A program made the position numbers and the translations under genes. From assembly GCA_965216755.1 (NCBI GenBank), contig CBDCGL010000011.1, positions 2,208,001-2,272,000 on the forward strand: a stretch of DNA of 64,000 bases, given 5' to 3'. This DNA comes from Alphaproteobacteria bacterium (GTDB taxonomy: Bacteria > Pseudomonadota > Alphaproteobacteria > UBA7887). Shown one piece after another: positions 48,843 to 64,000 of this stretch. How positions within the stretch are numbered: the first letter of the stretch is position 1; the number at the start of each line of letters is the position of its first letter. The notes below the pieces were generated by a model. The model ran no database searches, had not been told where the DNA came from, and saw only the letters and a program-made list of their open reading frames with translations.

Positions 48843-49675
48843 TTATTGGGAGACGCCGAGGTAAGCGTCGATGACACGTTGATCCGCGCGAACCTCGTCC
48901 GGCGTGCCATCGGCTATCTTGAGGCCGTAATCCAACACAACCACACGATCGGATATGTCCATCACAACACCCATATCGTGCTCTATCAAAATCACGGTGG
49001 TGCCGAATTCATCGTTCACATCAAGGACAAATCTTGACATGTCCTCCTTTTCTTCGACGTTCATGCCAGCCATCGGTTCGTCCAACAACAACAGGCGCGG
49101 CTCAGCAGCCAAGGCACGGCCAAGTTCGACGCGCTTTTGCATGCCATAGGGAAGCCGCCCGACCGGCGTTTTCCGGATCGACTGGATTTCTAGAAAATCG
49201 ATAATCTTTTCGGCAAATTCACGATTCTCGATCTCCTCGCGTTGGAACGGCCCCCAATACAGCGCTTGCCACAAGAAACCACGCCGCATCTTCATGTTTC
49301 GGCCCGACATGATGTTATCGAGCGTGGTCATGCCCTTAAAAAGCGCCACATTCTGAAACGTGCGTGCAATGCCTTGGCGGGCGATTTCCGCCGGACCGCC
49401 CGAACGCCGTTCGACACCATCAAAGTAAATGTGACCAGCCTGCGGGTGATAGACGCCATTGACGCAGTTCAAGAGCGACGTCTTGCCGGCGCCATTGGGG
49501 CCGATGATGGCAAGAATTTCGTGCTCGCGCACCGCGACACTGACATCGTTGAGCGCCTTGACACCACCGAATGACAGCGTAATGCCCTCGGCCCGCAGCA
49601 GAACGTCGCCAAGCGCCTTGTCCGGCGGCGGCGGACCGGCGTCTTCGGGCCTCATGTCGTTGGCGTTCTCGGGCA

Positions 49676-49676
<1 letters not shown>
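48843..49676 (-). CDS. LIV-type ABC transporter ATP-binding protein (LivG-like)
   Basis: FGGVKAL, GPNGAGKT, RTFQN, LPYG.QK, IEHDM and AYLG. Confidence 0.92.
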
Positions 49677-51649
<1,973 letters not shown>

Positions 51650-51855
51650 CGCCCACCACCGCCAGGCGGCGACCCAACATCGCTTGCATCTTATCCTCCC
51701 AAAATCACATTCATTGCGGCGCGTCTTCCGGCGCCTGGGCGAGGCGATTATTTCGGCAAAAGGCGTTTGTTACAACCCCGGTGTCGCCGACGTCCGCCAG
51801 CAACCTTGCCAAATCGGCACCAAATCACGGGCCCGCCGCCCGAACAATCGCCCAC

Positions 51856-52593
51856 CTATGACGATGCGAGAGCCAAAACGGGCGTGCCAATAGAAAGCCG
51901 AAGCAGGTCGTCGGCGCGCCCTTGATTGACGGCTAACTCGACCAAACCATTGGAATTTTCGTACCAGATCGGCATACCCTTTGCGACATCGGAAAATGTA
52001 CGCGCATGAGGGATGGTTTGTCGACCAGCCTTTAGAACAGCATCGGAGGGCAAGGTGCTGGCGCGCATGCCGGTCATCGCATTGCCATATGTATCGATGT
52101 AAACAACTTCGCCCAAATCATCCAGCCAATCCGCGCCCGCGACTGTCGCCGGGTCCAACCGGGTGCCATCCACAGGTTCATGGCCGGTCAGGGCCGCAGC
52201 AACCGGCGCAAAAAGGTCGCGGCCATGAAATGTCGCACTGAGTTGATCGGGGCGCCAGTCGATCTCATACCATTCAATTTCTTGGGCGCGCCGCGACACA
52301 ATGGCAAACAAACCATTGTCCGGGCCCACAAACCAACGATCGTCGGCACGTACCATAATGGGTCGTCTTCCAACATTTCCGACACCCGGATCGACAACGC
52401 CCAAACATACGCAACGTACCGGCAGCTGTTCGGCGAGCGCTGCCAAAAGATAGGCCGCGGTCTTGGGGTCGAATGTTGGCGCATCGTGCATCAAATCAAC
52501 CACCGGCTGATCCGGGTCGCACTTGGCCAGCGCCACTTTGAGCTGCCCCACATAGGGGCCTTCCGTGCCAAAATCGGTAAACAAAACAATCAT
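51856..52593 (-). CDS. DUF62 SAM hydroxide adenosyltransferase (SAM hydrolase/halogenase family)
   Basis: LFTDFG, VVDPGVG..RR, SATFHGRDLFAP, IDTYGN and ELAVNQG; GAAGGA SD. Confidence 0.92.
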   Translation of the reverse strand: MIVLFTDFGTEGPYVGQLKVALAKCDPDQPVVDLMHDAPTFDPKTAAYLLAALAEQLPVRCVCLGVVDPGVGNVGRRPIMVRADDRWFVGPDNGLFAIVSRRAQEIEWYEIDWRPDQLSATFHGRDLFAPVAAALTGHEPVDGTRLDPATVAGADWLDDLGEVVYIDTYGNAMTGMRASTLPSDAVLKAGRQTIPHARTFSDVAKGMPIWYENSNGLVELAVNQGRADDLLRLSIGTPVLALASS

Positions 52594-52606
52594 CGTGAAA
52601 TCCTTC

Positions 52607-54832
52607 TCAGTGGCGGCCCACGGCGCGCGCACCATGTGTCATCGTCACCAATGCCGCAACAAGAACCACCACCAGACCAATCCAAAGCCAGGTCATCATC
52701 GGATAGATGCGCAGCACAACCGGTACTGTCGACGGCGCGCGCACTAAGTCGGGCGACGCGCCCGCCGCTTGCGCCGTTGGCGCCTCGGCGCCAACCGCGG
52801 TATAGGAAATCGCCGGCAACCACACTTGCACATCGCGCCACCAGCCGCGATGAATAAACGGGTCAATGATTTGGCTTGCGCCGCTGATGGTGCGCGCATA
52901 ACGATAATCCAGAATTTCGCACATCAGACGGACCGGGCCCAAACCACCCGGCGCCGGCGGTTGGCTGTCACGATAGGCCGCTTGTCCGACAGCGCTTTGT
53001 ACGACGTCATCGCCGCGCCGCCGTTGCCACGCGACGCGACCGAGCGCCGAAAAGCCCCCGGCTTGGTCACCGCTGCCACGGCGGCCATCACGTGCAATTT
53101 GCTCGCGCTCGATGTCGACAGTGATCGCGTAGCCCCACGGGAAATCGATTGATTGGCCAAATCCCTCCGGAAAGCGTACGTCACGTTTGGTGTGGACATC
53201 ATAGACAGTGGCAACGGTGGCACTGAACAGGGCGACGACCAAGCCCGCATGGATGACACCAATCGGCAGGTAATAGCGCGTGACGACGCTATGGCGGCCG
53301 CGTCGGCGCATGCCGTCGATGGCCCAGACAAGGGCGGCCACAGCAAAATAGCCCATGGCCACCGCCAAACCGTCGAGCCAAGGAAATATCGCCGTCGTAT
53401 TAGCCGAGGTCATGCCTTTCCCGGTATAAAAAATCCCGGTCGGCGCGATGAAATACGGCACGAACGCGGTCGCGCAAATGACCGCGGCAGTGACGCCCCA
53501 ACGGCTTTGCCAGTGCCGAAGCGGCAGGAAATTGTGGCCGCCGGCCCAGCCGACGACAATACCAATCACCGCCAGCCAGGCATTGACCCCGAACCGATCG
53601 ACATCCCATTGGGCAAAAAGCTGATCCAGAGACTCGGCCTCGCGGGATGACACCCAGCGCGCCAAAAATGCAAAAAACGGTTTCAGCGAGGCCGGTCGGG
53701 GCCAATCCTGCCACTCAGCGATGTAGGCTTGGGCAATATAGCCAGCGGCGACGGTCGCCATGACCGTGAGCGCCAAAACCGCGATGGTGATCATCACGGC
53801 GGCCTCATTGCGGCGCGGCGCCTCCACGTTGCGGCCGCGCGCGCGCCACAATGCCCAGGGAATCGCGGCGGCAACAACAATGGCCCCGACCAGGATCCAC
53901 GGAAAAGACGTCTCGCCCACATAGCGGTGGGACGATGCCAAGGTTGGGGTCCGCGTGATAACCAGTGACAGCAACGCCGCCAGTGCGGTGGCAATGCCCA
54001 ACAGTGGGCTTAGGCGCGCATACGCACCATTGGCGCGATAGCGACGGATGGTATGCAACTGTGCGGACGCCAGGGCCCAGACGACAAACACCGATGTCTG
54101 GACGACATCCCAATGCCAAAACGCCCCAAAGGTAAAGTCTTCATAGGCCCACCACATACCGGCGGCAAGTCCGGCCGAAAGGATCAACCAGCCCCAACGC
54201 ATGTGACGGGCCGCGACCGCGGCCCATGCAGTCCCATCCCGCGCCAAGGCTTCAAACGCAGCGCCCATGGGCGCAACAAAAAAGGTGTAGGCCACAAAAA
54301 CCATCGGTGGATGCAACAACATCCAGAATCGCACCAAGTGCGCGTTCATGCCGCGTCCGTCCGCTGCCGCAAGATAGGCTTCGGGCGTTGCGGTGAAAGG
54401 CGACCACCACACGGCCCCCGACGCGAATAACGCCGTCACCAACAGGGCACCACGTCCCGTCCATGTTCCATAATTGGTCAGCGCGACGGCCGCCACGGCG
54501 CTGAAAGCACCGAGCCCCAGCAATGTCCCTTCATCGCCACCCCATAAATTAGCAAGCTTATAATACCAAGGCAGCGCGGTGGCGCTGTAAAGCCATACGT
54601 AATTGACGTTGAAACGATCGAATAGCAGCGCGTGCGCCAAGGCCAGCATCGCCGCGCACAACAGCACGGCGGCGATGGTGGCTGCCGCGTTTTGTCGACG
54701 TGGCATCAGGAGACCGCCGAGGATCGCCGCCAGCGCGCCAACCACCGAGATCTGTGACGCCAAGCCGCCGATCAGCATCAGCAGACCGGCCAAGAGTGCG
54801 GCGATGGTGACTGTTGTGAGCGTCCGGACCAC
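52607..54832 (-). CDS. Divergent CcmF/NrfE-type cytochrome c synthase (heme lyase); start uncertain
   Basis: WGGDEGTLL, LLHPP, WWAY...FGAFWHWDVVQTS...LH, SSHRY, GVIHAG and C-terminal YPMMTWLWIG; many TM helices. The track's longer start (55030) overlaps qhpE. Confidence 0.8.
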   Translation of the reverse strand: MVRTLTTVTIAALLAGLLMLIGGLASQISVVGALAAILGGLLMPRRQNAAATIAAVLLCAAMLALAHALLFDRFNVNYVWLYSATALPWYYKLANLWGGDEGTLLGLGAFSAVAAVALTNYGTWTGRGALLVTALFASGAVWWSPFTATPEAYLAAADGRGMNAHLVRFWMLLHPPMVFVAYTFFVAPMGAAFEALARDGTAWAAVAARHMRWGWLILSAGLAAGMWWAYEDFTFGAFWHWDVVQTSVFVVWALASAQLHTIRRYRANGAYARLSPLLGIATALAALLSLVITRTPTLASSHRYVGETSFPWILVGAIVVAAAIPWALWRARGRNVEAPRRNEAAVMITIAVLALTVMATVAAGYIAQAYIAEWQDWPRPASLKPFFAFLARWVSSREAESLDQLFAQWDVDRFGVNAWLAVIGIVVGWAGGHNFLPLRHWQSRWGVTAAVICATAFVPYFIAPTGIFYTGKGMTSANTTAIFPWLDGLAVAMGYFAVAALVWAIDGMRRRGRHSVVTRYYLPIGVIHAGLVVALFSATVATVYDVHTKRDVRFPEGFGQSIDFPWGYAITVDIEREQIARDGRRGSGDQAGGFSALGRVAWQRRRGDDVVQSAVGQAAYRDSQPPAPGGLGPVRLMCEILDYRYARTISGASQIIDPFIHRGWWRDVQVWLPAISYTAVGAEAPTAQAAGASPDLVRAPSTVPVVLRIYPMMTWLWIGLVVVLVAALVTMTHGARAVGRH

Positions 54833-54836
54833 CGGG

Positions 54837-55565
54837 TTATCGACCGCCGGGGTCGGCGCTGCCACGGCGCTCTGGGCCACAAAATCGTGCCATCTGCCGC
54901 AATCGGGCGATGGCCTGAGACGTGGTCCGCGGCTTGCGCGCGGCCGTATCCCGCGCCAGTAGACCGCATGCATGCGCGACGGCGAAACTGGCGCCGCCGG
55001 CGGATGGTACGTCGCGCTCACCAACAGCATCTAGCGGCCGAACATGGGCGCCGAAATCGGCCTGCGCGCTGTTGAGCCAAGAGATCTCATCGACGGCACA
55101 ACGCGCATCGCCGGTGATCCTGATTACACCGGGGTATGCGGCCGGATAAACCGGGTCACCTCGCGCCGGCGCCGAGGCCAGCAGCACGGCACCCGCGGCA
55201 CACGCGGCGGCGCATGCGGTTCGCAGGACCGGTCGGTCGGCCCTGAGTCCGAAGCTCAGCGTGATCAAATGCACGTCCTGGGATATCAGCCAGTCCAGGC
55301 CCGCGGCCACCACCTCGGCGGTCACCGGATGCCGACGTGTAAAGACTTGCGCGTTGACCAAGACCGCGTTCGGCGCGTGATGCCACATGATCCGAGCCAA
55401 CGCCCCGCCATGGCCAACTTGATCCGCTCGGGCGGGCCCAGTTTCGATTTGCCCGGCTTGGTTGCGTACAAAGCGGCGTTCGGCGATCACATGAGACACG
55501 CGGGCAGCATCCACACCGCTGTCCAACAAGCCAATACGCACTGCGGTATGGTCAGCGACTGTCAC
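54837..55565 (-). CDS. qhpE: Subtilisin-like serine protease QhpE (gamma-subunit leader peptidase)
   Basis: LLDSGVD (Asp), VGHG (His), YPAAYPGV and GASFA (Ser); lies in the qhp cluster with an ATGA overlap to qhpF. Confidence 0.85.
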   Translation of the reverse strand: MTVADHTAVRIGLLDSGVDAARVSHVIAERRFVRNQAGQIETGPARADQVGHGGALARIMWHHAPNAVLVNAQVFTRRHPVTAEVVAAGLDWLISQDVHLITLSFGLRADRPVLRTACAAACAAGAVLLASAPARGDPVYPAAYPGVIRITGDARCAVDEISWLNSAQADFGAHVRPLDAVGERDVPSAGGASFAVAHACGLLARDTAARKPRTTSQAIARLRQMARFCGPERRGSADPGGR

Positions 55566-57313
55566 GGCCGTGTGTCGTGGGTAGCGCGCCCGGACGACTG
55601 TGGCATCAATTGGCCATCGACCAAGGTCACGATTTCATCCGTACCAATCAGCGCATCGGGGCGATGCGAAATGATGATCCGCGTACGATCTGCAAAGGCG
55701 GCGTCGACCGCTTCAACCAACCGGCGTTCCGTTTCCAGATCCACGGCCGACGTGGCTTCGTCCATCACCAAAATACGCGGATCCTGCAACACCGCGCGCG
55801 CGATGGCCAGGCGCTGGCGTTGGCCGCCAGACAGGCGCGCGCCGCGCTCACCAACGGGCGTGTCATAGCCTTCTGGCAAAGTTGACACAAACGTGTCAAT
55901 TTGCGCGCGGGCGGCGGCAGCGCGCACCGCAGCAGCGTCGGCTTCCGGCGCAGCGTAGCGAATATTGTCGGCGATCGAACCACGAAACAGCACGATATCT
56001 TGGGCGACGACGGCAACCGTTTGGCGCAATGCCGCCAAATCCAGTTCACGCAGATCGATCCCATCAATCACGATGCGCCCAGCTTGAGGATCGAAATGGC
56101 GGTGCAAAAGATCTATCAGAGTTGTCTTGCCGGCCCCAGAAATGCCTGCCACGCCAACCTTCGTGCCCCCGCGAATGGTTAGGCTCGCGCCATCCAAAAC
56201 CACGCTTGAATCACCCGGATAGGCAAATTCAACTGAGTCAAAAACGACCCCGCCGACGCCATCCGCGGGCAGTGGCCGTGGCATCGCGGTCGGACGAACA
56301 GCAGGCCGTGCCATGGTCAGGCTGCGCACGCGATCCAGACTGACAGCCATACGCATCATACCAATATAAACACCGAACAGACTTTGCACCGGCCCCACGG
56401 CAAATCCGAGATAGGTTGAGAACGCAATCAATGTGCCGATGGTCAGCTCACCCCTGATGATCATCGCGCCGCCGGCCAAAAAGACGAGCGCTCGACTAGC
56501 CGAAGTCAGCAGGTTGGGTACCGCGGCGGTAAGAAACTCGGTCACTTGCAGCCGCAACAAGTCGCCAAGATAGCGTTGATTGAGGCGGCGCAAGCGCGCC
56601 ACCTCGCGCGCTTCGGCAGCGACCGATTGGATGAACTTCATCGCCGGTAAGGTTTCAACCAGAAACGCGGTCAAATCACTCAATCGTTCGCGCACAGTGC
56701 GCGTGCGCACTTCGACGCGCGGCCGCATGCGGCGCAGAAACAAAGCCTCGACCGGTAAAAGGACGAGGGCGACCAGCGTCAATTCCCAGCTTAGCCACAG
56801 CATCAGTGCCAAGGCACCGATCAGGCCCAATACGCCATTGACGGCCGCCAGCACGGCATCAACGCTGAAGCGCTGCAACGCAGCTACATCGCCATCAAGT
56901 TTCTGCAGCACGTCGCCACTGCGCGCTGCGGCAAAATATGCGGGCGACAAGGTCTGCAAATGACCGTACACCGCCTCGCGCATGGTAAACAGGACCAAGC
57001 CGGACAATTTGACGTGCTGGTAGCGGTTGACGCCACCCACGCCCAGATTCACGATCCCGGTCGCCAAAAGCAGTCCGGTCAACGCCGTCAACCAAGCGAA
57101 ATCCCCGGCTAGGATGCCATCGTCGATGATCAGCTTCATGATGTAGGGCTGGGCGGTAATGATCGCCGTGGCCAGCGCAGACAGTACCAAGACTGCGATC
57201 AATCGGCCCTTGTGCGGTCGCACATAGCCGAACAACCAGCGCAACGACTCGGCGTCCAGGAGCGACGGGATCGAAGGCGCCACCTGCGGCTCAGCCATAC
57301 CCGCCAGCGCCAT
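55562..57313 (-). CDS. qhpF: ABC exporter QhpF (fused permease/ATPase)
   Basis: 6-TM domain plus GISGAGKT, LSGGQRQR and MDEATS; directly after qhpB. Confidence 0.85.
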   Translation of the reverse strand: MALAGMAEPQVAPSIPSLLDAESLRWLFGYVRPHKGRLIAVLVLSALATAIITAQPYIMKLIIDDGILAGDFAWLTALTGLLLATGIVNLGVGGVNRYQHVKLSGLVLFTMREAVYGHLQTLSPAYFAAARSGDVLQKLDGDVAALQRFSVDAVLAAVNGVLGLIGALALMLWLSWELTLVALVLLPVEALFLRRMRPRVEVRTRTVRERLSDLTAFLVETLPAMKFIQSVAAEAREVARLRRLNQRYLGDLLRLQVTEFLTAAVPNLLTSASRALVFLAGGAMIIRGELTIGTLIAFSTYLGFAVGPVQSLFGVYIGMMRMAVSLDRVRSLTMARPAVRPTAMPRPLPADGVGGVVFDSVEFAYPGDSSVVLDGASLTIRGGTKVGVAGISGAGKTTLIDLLHRHFDPQAGRIVIDGIDLRELDLAALRQTVAVVAQDIVLFRGSIADNIRYAAPEADAAAVRAAAARAQIDTFVSTLPEGYDTPVGERGARLSGGQRQRLAIARAVLQDPRILVMDEATSAVDLETERRLVEAVDAAFADRTRIIISHRPDALIGTDEIVTLVDGQLMPQSSGRATHDTRP

Positions 57314-57336
57314 TGCGCGAACCAGGGCGGATATAG

Positions 57337-57366
57337 AAAAAGGGGGCCGGCCCTACGCCGCCCCCC
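57337..57366 (-). terminator. Putative intrinsic terminator after qhpB
   Basis: Minus strand reads GGGGGGCGGC-GTAGG-GCCGGCCCCC-TTTTT (one mismatch in the stem). Confidence 0.55.
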
Positions 57367-57390
57367 ATACCCACTCCGCTCGTAGAAAGC

Positions 57391-58518
57391 TTATCGTTGG
57401 ACCACACGAAACGTGCCGGCGCCTTGGTCGCCACCGCCCGGCAATTCGATCGTCGCAATCTGTTCCAGAGTTTCGGTTGAATGAATAGCGATGTCGTCGA
57501 ACGTGCTACCGATGTAAATCTCGGACCCATCACTCGACACGATCGCCGAATAATAAGTGTGATCTAGCTCGATGCGATGGACCAGGTCGCCGGTGTCCAA
57601 ATCGTACTTGCTGAGGTGCGAGTAGACGCCATAGATGTGCTTGGGATCAGTGGGGCTTTTGGCCAGCGAAAAGATAATCAGGTCCATCGACGCGATCGGC
57701 ACCTGGCTCACCTCGTTGGTGGTCAAATCGATCATTGTCGCGCCCAGTTTGAAATCTACCATCTCATCGAAATTACCCGCGTCGCGCGCTTCGCGGCTGG
57801 AAAACTCTGGCGCGCCAAACGGCATCACCATGGTTTCAGTGGTTTCGTAGATCGGCCAAAACGCCAGACCGTCGGGCGTGCCGTACGTTGGCTGGGTCTC
57901 CTGCCAATACAAGATCGGAATGGTCTCGACAATGGTGCCGGACGCCATGTGAATCTTGTACAGATCATGACCGCCCGCCCAGATATGCTCGCCGTCGGCC
58001 GACGGCGCCATGATGGTCAAACCACGCGGCACGTCGAAGGTACGTGTCGGCGTCGCCTCTAAGCCGGCGGTGGCATCAAAAACCGCCACCCGGTGTGGCA
58101 AGATCGTGTAGCGATCGCTGAGCAGCTCGACCCGCGATTGCATCGCATAGATCTCACTGCCGTCGCGTGTCACCGTCATGGCACCGATCGTTTTGCCGCG
58201 AATATTGCCTTCCGACATATTGGCGCGGAACACTTCTTCGCAGGTGTCCAGGTTGATGCCCGAAATTTCGCCCCAGCCCGCGGTGACGACATAGGCGACG
58301 TCGCCGTCCGGATTGACAGACACGGTCAGCGGCGAGCCGCGTCCTGGAATATCGCAATCGCGCACCACCTCGCGCGCGGCGACATCGATCAAGAACAGCT
58401 TGTTCGGTTTGCTGATAGCGACAATAAAATCGGCAGACAGGGCCGGCGTCGCCGCAGACAGCGCGACTCCGGCGAGCCCAACCGTCGCGATCAGTGCATG
58501 CGTCAGGACTTTGCTCAC
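57391..58518 (-). CDS. qhpB: Quinohemoprotein amine dehydrogenase beta subunit
   Basis: GTG start after GGGAGG; signal peptide; KPNKLFLID, PDGLAFW and LDHTYY beta-propeller; follows qhpC. Confidence 0.9.
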   Translation of the reverse strand: MSKVLTHALIATVGLAGVALSAATPALSADFIVAISKPNKLFLIDVAAREVVRDCDIPGRGSPLTVSVNPDGDVAYVVTAGWGEISGINLDTCEEVFRANMSEGNIRGKTIGAMTVTRDGSEIYAMQSRVELLSDRYTILPHRVAVFDATAGLEATPTRTFDVPRGLTIMAPSADGEHIWAGGHDLYKIHMASGTIVETIPILYWQETQPTYGTPDGLAFWPIYETTETMVMPFGAPEFSSREARDAGNFDEMVDFKLGATMIDLTTNEVSQVPIASMDLIIFSLAKSPTDPKHIYGVYSHLSKYDLDTGDLVHRIELDHTYYSAIVSSDGSEIYIGSTFDDIAIHSTETLEQIATIELPGGGDQGAGTFRVVQR

Positions 58519-58574
58519 CTTATCCTCCCACGTTTTTTTCTTCTTTGGCTCACCGGCGTGATGTCTCGCCTGCC

Positions 58575-58907
58575 CTACACCGTGCCGTCGCCGGTTGGAA
58601 ACACTGATTCCAGCAGCCGCCAGTCGCGTTCGGCCGACGGCGCATTGGCGTTCCAGTCTGGATAGGTATTCAGCGTATCCGGTACCTGGGCCGGCCACCA
58701 GCATGGGTCGGCACAACCGTACAGATCAGCCTCCATGGGCTGACACAGCGACGCGACACCGCCGAACGGATCGACTTCCCAACCGGGATCCAGGGTGGTC
58801 GAGCAACCGGCGACGACTTGCATCATCATCACTTCCTCGACCTGGCCACCGTCGATCGCTTTATCGACCACGTCCGCCTTTCTGTTCATGGACTTCAGAT
58901 GCTTCAT
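58575..58907 (-). CDS. qhpC: Quinohemoprotein amine dehydrogenase gamma subunit precursor (CTQ-bearing)
   Basis: 28-aa MKHLK leader, then core [13 protein letters not shown]...[24 protein letters not shown]. Confidence 0.97.
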
Positions 58908-60337
58908 TTGTAAGCCCTCCGAGGCTCGATATGTCTGGCAAAAAAGCCTGGGTTCCGATTCATGATCCGGGTGTAAACGTCGATACCGAAGTCGACCCAG
59001 TCACGCATCAGATCGCAATAGTGATAGGTCGGGTGCACCGGATCGTTGTAGTGGGCATAACTCTCATGATAGCAGCCGCCCGAGCATAAATTCCGAATTC
59101 GACAGGTGTCGCAGCCGCGATCGGTCCGGTCGAGTCGTGACTCGAGGAATTTCCCCAACCTCGGCTTGTCCAAACCCGCATCGACGTCGCCGAAGGTGTC
59201 CAGATCTGAACCGGTAAAGCGATGGCACAGATTGATGCCGCCGCCGGTGTCAACGGCAACCAGGCCCAGTCCGGCGCCACAAGGCAACGCTTTGGTCATG
59301 CCCTCCGACAGATCGGTCATCAGCTGATGCATATTGCCGAAGCCGATATTGCGGTCTTCGCACGCCGCGTCCTGGTAATTGCGGCCGAGCGTCTTCATGC
59401 CGGCGAAGACTTCGGCCAATTCGTCACCGTTCAATTTGAACAAGGCGTTATCGGACGACGTCACCGGCGAAAAGCCGACCTCGTGAAAACCAATATCGTT
59501 GATAAGATGATCCCAAATCGCCACCACGTCGGTGACCCCGGCGGTCAACGTGACCCGTGCGCCGATTGGCCGTGAATCGTAGCGGTCCAACAGCATCCTG
59601 GCTTTCGCCGCGACCACGTCATAGGTGCCAGCGCCGCCCACCGTGCGGCGATTGATATCGTGCAGGGCCTTTGGCCCGTCCATGCTGATGGTCAGGCCGA
59701 AGCGATGCCGATTGAGATAGTCGACAATCGGCGCGGTCAGCATGGTCGCGTTGCTGGTCATGGTAAAATCGACGCGCTTACCCAATTCGCGCGCGCGCCG
59801 TTCGGCATACTCGACCACGTCCTTAATCAGCGGCAAATTGGTCAACGGTTCGCCACCGAAAAACACGACATTGAAACGATCGCGCGCGCGCCCTTCCTCG
59901 AGCAGCATTTCGATGCTCTTGACCGCCGTCTCGAACGACATTTTGTCGCCCTTGGCGGGCGTTGTCAGATCTTCTTTGTAGCAATAGGTACAGCCCAGAT
60001 TGCAACCGGTGTTGACGTTCAAGACAACGGTGGAAAGCGGAAAATTCTCTATCTTGATCTGCTTTTGTCGAGCGCGCACCGGGCGGCCATCGCTGACCAC
60101 CTCAAGGTCAATGAATTCCTGCAGGGCTTCGGTCACTTCTTTGGGCGGCACGCGGCCTTCAAAACGGGCGCGGACATCGCCCGCGGTCACGGATCGCGTT
60201 TCCGCGAACAAATCCATGATTTCACGGCCGACCGGATCGAGCTCGAACAAACTGCTGGTCGGAATATGAAACAGCATCCGCCGCGGTCCGACATCGACCT
60301 GGTGGACATTGCTGTCAACCAATTGCAGCGTGGTCAT
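58904..60337 (-). CDS. qhpD: Radical SAM/SPASM thioether-forming maturase QhpD
   Basis: [11 protein letters not shown]-terminus, [19 protein letters not shown] and SPASM CGAG...CHRF...CDTC...CSGGCYHE. Confidence 0.95.
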
Positions 60338-60427
60338 CGGTGCCCCCGCATGTCCGCATGCGGCGCACATTTTTGCCTGCGCCGCATGCTTTTTCGTTTG
60401 GGGTTCTTGGCTGGGATCATGACCGCG

Positions 60428-62029
60428 TTACCGAATCGGCGGATCGTTCCAGCGTTGCACGGTGACGATAAGCTGCCCGGAGCCGACCACCTCGTTGCCA
60501 TCGTCATTGATGGTGGCGTCGACCCGCAAATTGCCAGCGTTGTTGGTCCGGAATGGCCGCTCTGGATTCAAGCCCGCGCCAGCCGGTACATAGACCCCGG
60601 TATTGGGATCCATTGCGCCGGCGTATTTTTCATCCTCCAGCTCGGCCGCCACTTCGTCAAACGGTACCGCAGCCCAAGTCGCGGGCATTGAACCGATGCG
60701 AATATCGTCATCGGTTCCGGCCTCACCGTCGGCCCCGTTGGCGTAGGCGACCGCGTCAAACACCGCATTGACCAAGGGCGTCAGTCCGCCATTGCCGCCA
60801 ACCCGCGCGATGTTGTACGGCGGCTCGACTTGAACCGAATCGACTTGGGTATAGACCGCGAACAACCCGTCGGCCTGGCTGCCGCCGACCGAGATCCCGC
60901 GCCCGCCAACGGCGGCATCGGCCGCCGCCTCGGCACGCACGACGATCGTGTTTGCATCGGCGGACACGGTTTCCAGCACGGCTACGCCGTCGCCCAAGCT
61001 GACGTCGCCACTGAGGCCCGTGCCATGCACCGCGATCTCCGCGGTCTGGCCAGATTTCAGATAGGCCGGCTGAACGGCCATAATGTGGCCGCCCGACCCA
61101 TCGCGCACGGCGACGATATTGGCGCCGAACTCATCCGCACCCAACTGAAATGCGCGGCCCGCAATGCGGTTGCCATCCTCGGAAACGGTAAAAACGGATC
61201 GGTTGACGTCGCCGCGACTGTTGGTCGACCGTCCACGCCATTCATAGCCGGTATAAAGAATGCTCTCGCCCGTGCCCGAGACGGTTGAGCCATCGGGATA
61301 GGTCGCCTCAAACGAATAGCTATATCTGTCGTCGCCTATGCTCTCGACCGTCATCATACCTTGTGACACGCCGCGGCTGGGCGCGTGCGCCACGACCCGC
61401 CAGCTTCCGGACAAGTCGGGGCTCTGAAATCCTTTCCAGGCGTTCCACGCGTCGGTTTCGAAGGGAAAGCGCTCCGTCAACCAATCGACCGTATCCGTCG
61501 TCGCAATCTCAAACCACTCGCGGTCGCGACCATAGAATTGATATTCCGTGGTCGGCCATTGGCCAAGATGGAAATGGACGTGCAACAACCATTCGTTGCG
61601 CGTGCGCCGCTGTAACGCGCCGCGCGCGCCACTGTGGCAGCGTGCGCACATCAGACCATATTCGTCCGGGAAGTCTTCGATCGCGCCGGGCCGTTTCTCT
61701 AGAATATACCGATAAGGTTCAGTCTCGGCGGGTGCTAGGCCCTGGGTATCGGAAAGGTACTTGACCAAGGCGCGCCGTTCCTCGGCCGAGACTTCGACGC
61801 CGTGCATGATGCCCATCCGCACTATCGTCATCAGCCACCCTTCGGGCGTTTTGCGCTGCTCGGCAACGCGACTGAGGCCGCCATCCTCTTGAGTATGGCA
61901 ACTACCACAGCGAGCATTGAGAATTTCGGGTCCATCCGCCGCCGTCGCGACGCGGGTGGCGCCACCTGCCGCAAGGTTTAGCGACACCAAAATCGCAAGC
62001 GCCACAGGGCTATAGAAACCTATGCGCAT
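60428..62029 (-). CDS. qhpA: Quinohemoprotein amine dehydrogenase alpha subunit (di-heme c)
   Basis: ATG 62029 after GGGGAGG; Sec-type signal; CGSCH, QRKTPEGW..T..RM, CARCH, YTGYEWR and TVQRWN.PPIR. Confidence 0.96.
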   Translation of the reverse strand: MRIGFYSPVALAILVSLNLAAGGATRVATAADGPEILNARCGSCHTQEDGGLSRVAEQRKTPEGWLMTIVRMGIMHGVEVSAEERRALVKYLSDTQGLAPAETEPYRYILEKRPGAIEDFPDEYGLMCARCHSGARGALQRRTRNEWLLHVHFHLGQWPTTEYQFYGRDREWFEIATTDTVDWLTERFPFETDAWNAWKGFQSPDLSGSWRVVAHAPSRGVSQGMMTVESIGDDRYSYSFEATYPDGSTVSGTGESILYTGYEWRGRSTNSRGDVNRSVFTVSEDGNRIAGRAFQLGADEFGANIVAVRDGSGGHIMAVQPAYLKSGQTAEIAVHGTGLSGDVSLGDGVAVLETVSADANTIVVRAEAAADAAVGGRGISVGGSQADGLFAVYTQVDSVQVEPPYNIARVGGNGGLTPLVNAVFDAVAYANGADGEAGTDDDIRIGSMPATWAAVPFDEVAAELEDEKYAGAMDPNTGVYVPAGAGLNPERPFRTNNAGNLRVDATINDDGNEVVGSGQLIVTVQRWNDPPIR

Positions 62030-62105
62030 AACCTCCCCTTCCTCCGACTTCGGCCGCACATACACGCGACGGCCGCAGCGCGGCTTATTCTTGATGATTA
62101 ATGAA

Positions 62106-62134
62106 ATGTTCTTGTGAAACGGGCGGCGAGTCAA
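62106..62134 (-). promoter_or_regulatory. Putative sigma70-type promoter of qhpA
   Basis: Minus strand TTGACT-N17-GAACAT in an AT-rich patch about 80-105 bp upstream of qhpA. Confidence 0.35.
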
Positions 62135-62304
62135 GGCGCCCGAAATCACGATAATCGGCCGTGAGGTGCCTGATGGAAGAGGTTGCGCCGGTCGCGACCG
62201 CGCGCAGCACAAAAAACTGCGCTCAGCCGCCGGCCTCTCGTCTTGACACGCACCAACGCCCAACATGCCCGACCGCACGACGTCCGGTAGGGTTATGGGG
62301 TTCG

Positions 62305-62739
62305 TCAGGCGTTAATGTATTCGCGAAGCTGGTTCGCTTCTTCCTCTGCCTCGCGGATCCGATACTTAACTACATCACCGATGCTCACGATGCCGACCAA
62401 GGTGCCGTCAGCGAGGACCGGCAAATGCCGACATCGCCGCCTGGTCATCATCGACATGACGTCGTCGATGGTGGTCGACTCGGTAACCGACAACACGTCG
62501 GTGCTCATCAATGTCTCAACTTTTTCATCCAAGCAAGCGGCGCCGCGTTCGGCCACACCATAAATCATGTCGCGCTCGGACATCATGCCGACCACGACGC
62601 CGTCAGCACCGGTCACCACGACGGCGCCGATGCGATGATCTACCAGACGCTTGGCGAAATCGCCGATCCGCACATCCGGGGTCACGGTAACAACCGCCAC
62701 CCCCTTTTCTTGCAATATGTCGCGTACATACATAGCCAA
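62305..62739 (-). CDS. Tandem CBS-domain protein
   Basis: VRDIL..KG, IGAVVV, GMMSERD and RHLPV...GIVSIGDVVK. Confidence 0.93.
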   Translation of the reverse strand: MAMYVRDILQEKGVAVVTVTPDVRIGDFAKRLVDHRIGAVVVTGADGVVVGMMSERDMIYGVAERGAACLDEKVETLMSTDVLSVTESTTIDDVMSMMTRRRCRHLPVLADGTLVGIVSIGDVVKYRIREAEEEANQLREYINA

Positions 62740-62925
62740 CCCCCTGCCGCCGAGCGGGGGGGCCGAGTCAGGTTGCGGGCGCCCCCTGGTTTTCGATCAC
62801 CGGGTTTGCCACCGCGACCCCCCGATCAGCTCTTCAACACAAGTATAGCCCAAAACCGGCTATTCCCCAAATCGAGTCGCTGGCGCACGCACCCCAAGCA
62901 GTTGGCCATATTGCCTTTATTGTCT

Positions 62926-64000
62926 CTATGACGCCGACGCCGCGGCGACCACGTCATCGGCAAGCTTGCCTTGAAGTTCCTGCAGATGGTCGAAATGGTA
63001 GTCAAACGTGCCCACGCCACGGCTGAGCGAGCGCAGCTCGATGATCAGGTCGTGCAATTCCGATTGCGGCAATTGAGCCGCCACCGAATCCCAGCCGTCC
63101 CACCCATCGCGGGGTCCGAAACCAAGGATCTGGCCGCGGCGACCGCTCAATAGGCGCTGAATATGGGCGGTGAATTCCGATGGCACGAACACCTCGACGT
63201 GGTAGATCGGCTCCAATAGCACCGGATTACATTTCGGCATGCCCTCGTTCATGGCGATTCGGCCCGCGGTCTGAAATGCCATTTCCGAGCTGTCGACCGA
63301 GTGATATGAGCCGTCCGTCAGTGTCACCGCCACATCCACCACCGGGAAGCCCAGCGGTCCACGTTTGCAATAGTCGACGACGCCATGTTCCACCGCGGGA
63401 ATGTATTGGCGCGGCACGGCACCACCGACAATCGTGTTGTTGAATTCAAACCCACTGCCGCGTGGTAACGGCTTGATATCGATGAAAACGTCGCCGAATT
63501 GCCCATGGCCACCCGATTGCTTTTTGTGGCGCCCATGAATGTGGGTCGCCGGTTTGCGAATCGTTTCCTTGTAGGGCACCGACGGCGACTCGGTGCGAAG
63601 CGGCAGGTGGAATTTGTTGCGCGCGCGCTCCAATGCCACTTGCAAATGAATCTCGCCTTGGCCGCGCAGCAACATCTGATGGGTTTCCGGGTTCGGCTCC
63701 ATGATCAGCGACCGGTCTTCCTCTGTCAATTTGTGCAGCGCGTCCGACATCTTGACTTCGTCGCCACGGTTTTCCGCAGCGACGCCAAAGGCGTAAACCG
63801 GCTTCAGCGGTTCGACGACGGCGCCATCGGTTGCGGCCAACTTGCCATCGGGCGACAGCATGACACCGGTCGCGATCTCGTCCATGCGCCCAAGCGCAAC
63901 AACCTCGCCCGCCTTGGCCTCCGGCACCTTGGTCGTGGCTTGGCCGACCATGCGATTGACACTGCCGACGCGCTGGCCATTCAGGGTCATGCCGTCTTTC
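62926..64000 (-). CDS. Elongation factor G-like protein (EF-G paralog), 5' part outside window
   Basis: GQGEIHL, VPYKETI, HKKQSGGHGQFGDV, GPLGFPV, DGSYHSVDSSEMAF and LLEPI; not in an rpsL-rpsG-fusA-tuf context. Confidence 0.9.
   Translation of the reverse strand, partial: KDGMTLNGQRVGSVNRMVGQATTKVPEAKAGEVVALGRMDEIATGVMLSPDGKLAATDGAVVEPLKPVYAFGVAAENRGDEVKMSDALHKLTEEDRSLIMEPNPETHQMLLRGQGEIHLQVALERARNKFHLPLRTESPSVPYKETIRKPATHIHGRHKKQSGGHGQFGDVFIDIKPLPRGSGFEFNNTIVGGAVPRQYIPAVEHGVVDYCKRGPLGFPVVDVAVTLTDGSYHSVDSSEMAFQTAGRIAMNEGMPKCNPVLLEPIYHVEVFVPSEFTAHIQRLLSGRRGQILGFGPRDGWDGWDSVAAQLPQSELHDLIIELRSLSRGVGTFDYHFDHLQELQGKLADDVVAAASAS

Follow-up and report, generated by a model that had tools for sequence, protein, structure and literature searches.

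What does a gene for a CcmF-type haem-handling membrane protein do at the end of a quinohemoprotein amine dehydrogenase (QHNDH) operon? We examined this question in a 64,000-nucleotide stretch of an alphaproteobacterial genome (GCA_965216755.1, contig CBDCGL010000011.1; hereafter the window), where positions 51856-62029 hold eight genes, all on the minus strand: qhpA-D-C-B-F-E, the CcmF-like gene (ccmFL) and a DUF62 gene. Genes were called from the list of open reading frames (ORFs) together with Pfam and NCBIfam equivalog models applied to the window proteins. The biogenesis of QHNDH serves as a model for how protein-derived cofactors are made, and the set of genes listed for it, qhpABCDEFGR, is regarded as complete. 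The original prediction had suggested that all eight genes may be a QHNDH subtype with its own haem-attachment and S-adenosylmethionine (SAM) housekeeping accessories, and possibly with a different route to the cysteine tryptophylquinone (CTQ) cofactor. We conclude instead that these positions carry a QHNDH operon of canonical make-up (qhpA-D-C-B-F-E) with one extra gene, ccmFL, as its last functional member. The operon itself is known, and its recurrent, so far undescribed accessory belongs to an enzyme type that is also known.

We scanned 185,579 species genomes with the window ccmFL protein, which yielded 28 loci, all from metagenome-assembled genomes (MAGs) of Pseudomonadota, and then applied tblastn with the window proteins. 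Genes of the qhp cluster are present in 20 of the 28 loci, and in 16 of these 20 qhpE lies directly upstream of ccmFL on the same strand. Other arrangements occur as well: a coenzyme A (CoA) ligase gene stands between qhpE and ccmFL in L010, ccmFL and a CoA ligase gene lie ahead of qhpA in L011, and ccmFL is divergent from qhpA in L012 and L031. The eight loci without qhp genes have an upstream flank of just 0-1.5 kb, except for L014, which has 3.4 kb of housekeeping genes. Five of these eight carriers were searched genome-wide (the genomes of L017, L024 and L029 were left out). Three encode QhpD elsewhere and the remaining two encode QhpA, with contigs ending at or near the gene; all five searched carriers hold QHNDH genes outside the fetched locus. 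One gammaproteobacterial genus, represented by two genomes (G479 and G613), has the order ccmFL-qhpA-D-C-B, with ccmFL directly upstream of qhpA, an aldehyde dehydrogenase gene and transporter genes alongside, and qhpE and qhpG 18-28 kb away. The linkage of ccmFL to qhp genes holds across two classes and four gene orders. No match to ccmFL was found by tblastn among the plasmids in PLSDB.

Two evenly drawn samples of 401 genomes each, a class sample and a phylum sample, were then scored for both genes. ccmFL is present in 5/401 genomes of the class sample and QhpD in 13/401, with all 5 carriers among the 13; these denominators include two unpublished genomes (G040, G240) that are negative for both. 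The phylum sample contains ccmFL in 3/401 genomes and QhpD in 7/401, again with every carrier among the QhpD-positive genomes. When the samples are pooled and the window's own genome (G000) is counted, 7 of 17 distinct QhpD-positive genomes have ccmFL, and all 7 carriers are QhpD-positive. These Pseudomonadota species add to the established gene list a distinct, strongly conserved CcmF paralog that travels with the cluster. We make no statistical claim on this linkage because the samples are small and the genomes related. The expectation that the CcmF-type gene would be linked to qhp in other genomes, for which co-occurrence scoring had been set beforehand, was borne out by the 28 loci, by both samples and by the gammaproteobacterial genus. 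ccmFL is a real, recurrent and optional qhp accessory.

Two further features of these loci were recorded. A fatty-acid CoA ligase gene (NF009233, about 890-920 bits) lies beside ccmFL at L010:3218-4993, L011:12075-13763 and L017:2931-4625, and in L010 and L011 it separates ccmFL from the qhp genes. Such a ligase fits a catabolic sequence from amine through aldehyde and acid to acyl-CoA. Two Emcibacter-like MAGs (G776 and G774, loci L063-L066) contain two QHNDH clusters, qhpA-D-C-B and a qhpA-C-B cluster without qhpD, and their ccmFL is unlinked, among genes for cytidylate kinase, 5-enolpyruvylshikimate-3-phosphate (EPSP) synthase and SelO.

The ccmFL protein passes none of the specific NCBIfam models: it scores 105 bits against a cut-off of 569 for TIGR00353, and 101 against 394 and 95 against 927 for the NrfE models. 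Only the broad Pfam family PF01578 (Cytochrom_C_asm) passes, at 38.5 bits against 29.9. The sole sequence match in the PDB is Thermus thermophilus CcmF (6zmq, E 1.5e-17), to which ccmFL is about 16% identical. A MAFFT alignment with Escherichia coli CcmF and with the CcmF of the same genome extends over the full length, from the first helices through the C-terminal periplasmic domain to the last helix. An AlphaFold 2 model of ccmFL (pLDDT 80.4, pTM 0.86) likewise retrieved 6zmq in Foldseek (E 3.3e-14, TM 0.57/0.71) as the only match with E <= 0.001, the next having E 0.016. A family hidden Markov model gives 644-1077 bits for ccmFL members and at most 136 bits for canonical CcmF proteins. Database labels for the relatives of ccmFL read "CcsA" or "CcmF", and there are 172 clusters at E <= 1e-40, some labelled Pseudomonas. 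Judged by sequence, ccmFL is a distinct family within the CcmF homologs.

The haem sites of CcmF are preserved in this family. Across 21 members, each 36-57% identical to the window protein, 95 alignment columns are invariant and the reading frames are intact. The columns of E. coli CcmF H173, H261, H303 and H491, which we take to be P-His1, TM-His1, P-His2 and TM-His2, hold histidine in 21 of 21 members. The columns of W229, A230 and D243 are equally invariant (21/21). In the available text of PMC10746174, these three residues position the P-haem in the WWD domain of CcmF, and the roles of the P-His and TM-His pairs are also described. The WWD loop itself is altered in ccmFL, EDFTFGQFWHWDPVQT against ELGWGGWWFWDPVEN. 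The family further has an insert of roughly 25 residues and extra invariant residues, namely His165, nine residues ahead of P-His1, His240 (in WHWD), His433 and Cys638. Compared with CcmF (6ZMQ and E. coli), ccmFL shares the fold, both histidine pairs, the W229/A230/D243 positions, the C-terminal periplasmic domain and the final helix, but differs in the WWD loop, the insert, the additional His and Cys residues, the sub-cut-off model scores and its location with qhp rather than ccm genes. With its rewritten haem site, ccmFL offers a naturally occurring variant in which to study what is specified by the WWD loop and by the P-His ligands.

The window genome also has a housekeeping ccm locus, with canonical CcmF and CcmC at 3.61 Mb, and a second, canonical CcmF match is present in 5/5 ccmFL carriers of the class sample. 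The possibility that ccmFL substitutes for the housekeeping CcmF was rejected on these grounds.

We consider it roughly an even chance that ccmFL, as an optional paralog of the System I holocytochrome c synthase dedicated to the qhp system, serves QhpA. Homology, conserved catalytic residues and genomic linkage suggest both the lyase activity and QhpA as the substrate. Such a protein would be co-expressed with the amine-induced qhp operon and would be an inner-membrane protein in which two His residues hold a transmembrane b-haem. It would take haem into the modified WWD site, ligated there by two periplasmic His residues, and would attach this haem to both CXXCH motifs of apo-QhpA exported by Sec. 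Working next to the housekeeping CcmFH, it would add capacity or substrate preference to the CcmF already in the genome. QhpA is the only c-type cytochrome in the qhp module, and since ccmFL keeps both haem sites, a dedicated lyase is the most economical reading.

The genome G304, from the same family as the window genome, provides a case of joint loss. Here qhpD and qhpG are gone and ccmFL is reduced to a 3' remnant with a stop codon (L055, G304:C3, 6323-6610, covering residues about 609-714, with one TGA), flanked by a CBS gene and by the DUF62-acyl-CoA ligase-ABC (ATP-binding cassette) backbone. This remnant is the scar left when the entire block of qhp genes plus ccmFL was deleted. Having been lost together, the qhp genes and ccmFL behave as a single block.

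Several observations weigh against a dedicated lyase for QhpA. Ten of the 17 QhpD-positive sampled genomes have no ccmFL, and neither does the plasmid-borne qhp cluster of Paracoccus sanguinis, which is of the Paracoccus type. That many qhp clusters function in its absence makes the gene an optional one. In a QhpD tree with 27 rows, from which L031 (its QhpD is partial) and L007 (it duplicates L050) were omitted, well-supported branches force at least five gains or losses of ccmFL, in a sampling that is biased because the ccmFL-positive rows were found via ccmFL and in which two plasmid rows were checked for ccmFL on the plasmids only. Among close relatives, G472 (L067) is congeneric with G479 and G613 (L059 and L061) and has the same locus of aldehyde dehydrogenase, major facilitator superfamily (MFS) transporter and qhpADCB without ccmFL. 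Between the MFS transporter gene and qhpA, the 2.3-kb ccmFL is either wholly present or wholly missing, and the flanking proteins are 93-97% identical. Pfam and NCBIfam searches of the window detected no CcmH-, NrfF- or NrfG-like gene beside ccmFL. The altered WWD loop and the four family-specific invariant residues mean that the chemistry of ccmFL could differ from that of CcmF. Finally, the two CXXCH motifs of QhpA are ordinary whether or not the cluster contains ccmFL, so QhpA lacks the kind of atypical motif by which NrfE and SirE are explained.

These two systems are the closest precedents for a dedicated lyase. NrfEFG, for NrfA with its CXXCK motif, and SirEFG, for the atypical site of SirA, are lyase paralogs that bring NrfF/G-type partners. 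In the available text of PMC6976685, the dedicated lyases NrfE (CXXCK) and SirE are explained by atypical haem motifs. As in NrfEFG and SirEFG, ccmFL is a second CcmF-type gene beside the presumed client cytochrome, in the presence of a housekeeping Ccm system; unlike them, its client motifs are canonical CXXCH and no partner gene adjoins it. For cytochrome c biogenesis, it would be unusual to find a System I synthase paralog dedicated to a client whose CXXCH motifs are ordinary.

We looked for an atypical QhpA haem motif as the reason for a dedicated lyase and found none that is general; by eye, sister pairs with and without ccmFL showed no consistent difference around the motifs. The sole exception is qhpA of L007/L050 (L050:8083-9645, minus strand), in a ccmFL-bearing cluster, where the first haem motif is CGAACH (CX3CH). 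Separately, the first motif of the Paracoccus sanguinis plasmid qhpA (L032:5274-6830) aligned without its first Cys (SAACH on CxxCH). The missing Cys may reflect a genuine site with a single Cys, variation in this strain, or an error of alignment or sequencing.

The ordinary motifs leave room for a lyase with another client, which could be the physiological acceptor of QHNDH electrons or, during growth on amines, cytochromes c in general. Canonical QhpA motifs that are matured without ccmFL in many genomes are consistent with this, as is the position of ccmFL among housekeeping genes in the Emcibacter-like genomes, unlinked to their two separate QHNDH clusters. However, the module has no second conserved gene for a c-type cytochrome, ccmFL adjoins qhpA in the gammaproteobacterial genus and in L011, L012 and L031, and it was lost with qhp in G304. 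We regard this alternative as unlikely, while ranking it first among the rivals.

A little less probable again is that ccmFL is a CcmF-derived transmembrane haem protein without lyase activity, which would use the haem in its WWD site to relay electrons to the quinone pool from the haems of QhpA and would both anchor QHNDH to the membrane and give its electrons an outlet. The two haem sites are both conserved, the extra invariant His165 and His240 lie near the periplasmic site, and the window has no CcmH-like partner nearby. The optional presence of the gene would fit alternative soluble acceptors, and the b-haem of CcmF has been proposed to pass electrons to the P-haem, according to the available text of PMC10746174. 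Against this stand the lack of precedent and of evidence for a quinone site, and a structural model that shows the CcmF fold only. In its fullest form, which we think improbable, ccmFL would be a respiratory component holding a permanent haem in the altered WWD site through the extra His residues, with the b-haem in addition, and would wire the alpha-subunit haems of QHNDH to the quinone pool. If true, QHNDH in the carriers would be a membrane-coupled amine:quinone oxidoreductase.

We turned to the eight-gene subtype of the original prediction, in which DUF62 would perform SAM housekeeping for QhpD and CTQ would be formed by a route not via QhpG. QhpD is a radical SAM enzyme, and an ORF and Pfam search of the window found no qhpG. 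The DUF62 start codon is an ATG 13 nt after the ccmFL stop, as had been predicted, with its own Shine-Dalgarno sequence (GAAGGA), and no terminator-like site lies between the two genes in a scan of 49000-63000 whose total of 19 sites is not above chance (15.4 +/- 3.6 in shuffles). The spacing, the Shine-Dalgarno sequence and the missing terminator make co-transcription plausible in this strain, and DUF62 may be co-transcribed with ccmFL here. Co-occurrence scoring contradicts a functional link. DUF62 is present in 4 of the 28 ccmFL loci, namely those of the closest relatives (L004, L005, L006 and L023), and is never adjacent to ccmFL: the distance is 1.3-1.7 kb, and in L023 and L006, the two annotated loci of the four, opposite-strand genes lie between. 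The gene is the only copy in its own genome, and in G304 it is kept in place beside the same acyl-CoA ligase and ABC genes despite the loss of qhp and ccmFL.

The neighbourhood of DUF62 points the same way. Beyond it, at window positions 48843-51649 and after a 206-nt gap, lie genes for a FadD-like acyl-CoA ligase and a branched-chain-type ABC ATPase, which are about 67-81% identical in L004, L005, L023 and L055. DUF62, the acyl-CoA ligase gene and the ABC gene are a conserved backbone that flanks the qhp block, and the 13-nt spacing in the window looks like the result of a lineage-specific deletion. The protein falls below two NCBIfam (R)-SAM hydrolase equivalog cut-offs (172 against 350 and 122 against 470 bits). 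Compared with the DUF62/(R)-SAM hydrolases in the available text of bioRxiv 10.1101/2025.08.29.672840 and PMC12120602, it has both Pfam domains (SAM_HAT N- and C-terminal) in common but is sub-cut-off on the equivalogs, and its linkage to qhp is absent outside close relatives. DUF62 is a housekeeping SAM hydrolase abutting the operon in this lineage, not a qhp component, and the accessory role once proposed for it did not stand.

The second half of the eight-gene subtype concerned QhpG. The window genome encodes a true QhpG (NF049967, 451 bits against 240; PDB 7ctq, E 8e-69) at C11:3831740-3833035 (locus L040:9672-11054, minus strand), its only genomic copy, 1.56 Mb from the operon. Every one of the 13 class-sample genomes with QhpD also has QhpG. 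In 12 of them the two genes share a contig, and in the 4 ccmFL carriers of that sample besides the window genome qhpG is a few kb at most from the other qhp genes. A CTQ route independent of QhpG was rejected on this evidence, and the eight-gene subtype as a whole is very unlikely. This disposes of two attractive leads, namely a SAM housekeeping role for DUF62 and the formation of CTQ without QhpG. In the window genome, QhpG appears in an operon with a GT2 glycosyltransferase gene and a B12-binding radical SAM methyltransferase-like gene, with a flavodoxin gene adjoining.

We give equally little credence to mere hitch-hiking, in which ccmFL would be a mobile or decaying CcmF duplicate without a QHNDH role: its patchy presence, repeated gain or loss and low CcmF/NrfE equivalog scores would fit, but the 95 invariant columns in 21 divergent sequences include all catalytic residues, the frames are intact, linkage spans two classes and four gene orders, and every checked carrier has QHNDH genes.

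A dedicated synthase paralog for QhpA remains the reading that we favour. We compared the operon with the qhp operon of Paracoccus denitrificans and Pseudomonas putida (qhpABCDEFGR; Oozeki et al. 2021, available text of PMC7876137). Common to both are qhpA, B, C, D, E and G passing equivalog cut-offs, an ABC exporter in the qhpF position, two CXXCH motifs in QhpA and the Cys/Trp pattern of QhpC. The window differs in its order A-D-C-B-F-E, in having qhpG 1.56 Mb off and no adjacent AraC-type regulator, and in the extra CcmF paralog, for which the named qhp genes have no counterpart. No paper pairing QHNDH with CcmF was found in open-access full text (supplements excluded), and an earlier mention is possible. 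The term "heme lyase" is absent from the available main text of PMC7876137, and "cytochrome c biogenesis" is absent from the qhp papers found; a broader set of listed papers on qhp and QHNDH likewise held nothing relevant. The gene occurs in cultivable, Pseudomonas-sized genomes with congeneric natural "knock-outs" (G479 and G613 versus G472), and its role is therefore directly testable.

The features of the operon are listed in Table 1. Models and ORFs confirmed the eight co-oriented genes at the places predicted, including the two overlaps (qhpD/qhpC and qhpF/qhpE); the remaining intergenic gaps are 56-77 nt. The prediction that ccmFL starts at or within the end of qhpE resolves into two options: a GTG at 54832, 4 nt past the qhpE stop, gives 741 aa, and the public call, a GTG at 54865 (33 nt further up), gives 752 aa and overlaps qhpE. 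QhpA has a signal peptide and exactly two CXXCH motifs, with 4 Cys in total and none outside the motifs, and the Cys/Trp pattern of QhpC is canonical. qhpD is a single copy in the window's own genome. The start of qhpB was placed at GTG 58518, downstream of a GGGAGGA Shine-Dalgarno sequence. All NCBIfam matches of qhpF are below cut-off and no QhpF-specific model is available; the gene was named from its domains and its place between qhpB and qhpE. An ABC exporter gene occupies the same position in related qhp loci, and the F-before-E order is common among the loci examined. No regulator gene of the QhpR or AraC type adjoins the operon, whose upstream neighbours are CBS-domain and EF-G genes; the search for a regulator was confined to these surroundings. 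A promoter scan of the region was at shuffle level and was not used as evidence.

Table 1. Genes of the QHNDH operon region, in window coordinates. Bit scores are given against the model cut-off where there is one.
Gene	Product	Position	Strand	Length	Evidence
qhpA	QHNDH alpha subunit	60428..62029	-	533 aa from ATG at 62029	TIGR03908 627 bits vs 274; four QHNDH alpha Pfam domains
qhpD	Radical SAM/SPASM maturase, gamma-subunit thioether cross-links	58904..60370	-		TIGR03906 744 bits vs 453
qhpC	Gamma subunit precursor	58575..58907	-	110 aa	NF037958 170 bits vs 50; PF08992; overlaps qhpD by 4 nt
qhpB	Beta subunit, signal peptide	57391..58518	-	375 aa	TIGR03907 352 bits vs 223
qhpF	ABC exporter, fused permease and ATPase	55562..57313	-		PF00664 (ABC_membrane) and PF00005 (ABC_tran); qhpF position
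qhpE	Subtilisin-like leader peptidase	54837..55565	-		NF049966 251 bits vs 165; overlaps qhpF by 4 nt
ccmFL	Divergent CcmF/NrfE-type haem-handling membrane protein	52607..54832	-		PF01578 38.5 bits vs 29.9; TIGR00353 105 bits vs 569
DUF62	SAM hydroxide adenosyltransferase / SAM hydrolase	51856..52593	-	245 aa	PF01887 153 bits; PF20257 76 bits

Two further loci from one family, L044 (G086:C4) and L048 (G252:C17), contain qhpD, qhpE, qhpF and qhpG, and tblastn at 1e-8 detected no qhpA, qhpC or qhpB in these 20-kb loci. They may represent a divergent system, or one in which the QhpD/E/F/G machinery acts on a different substrate.

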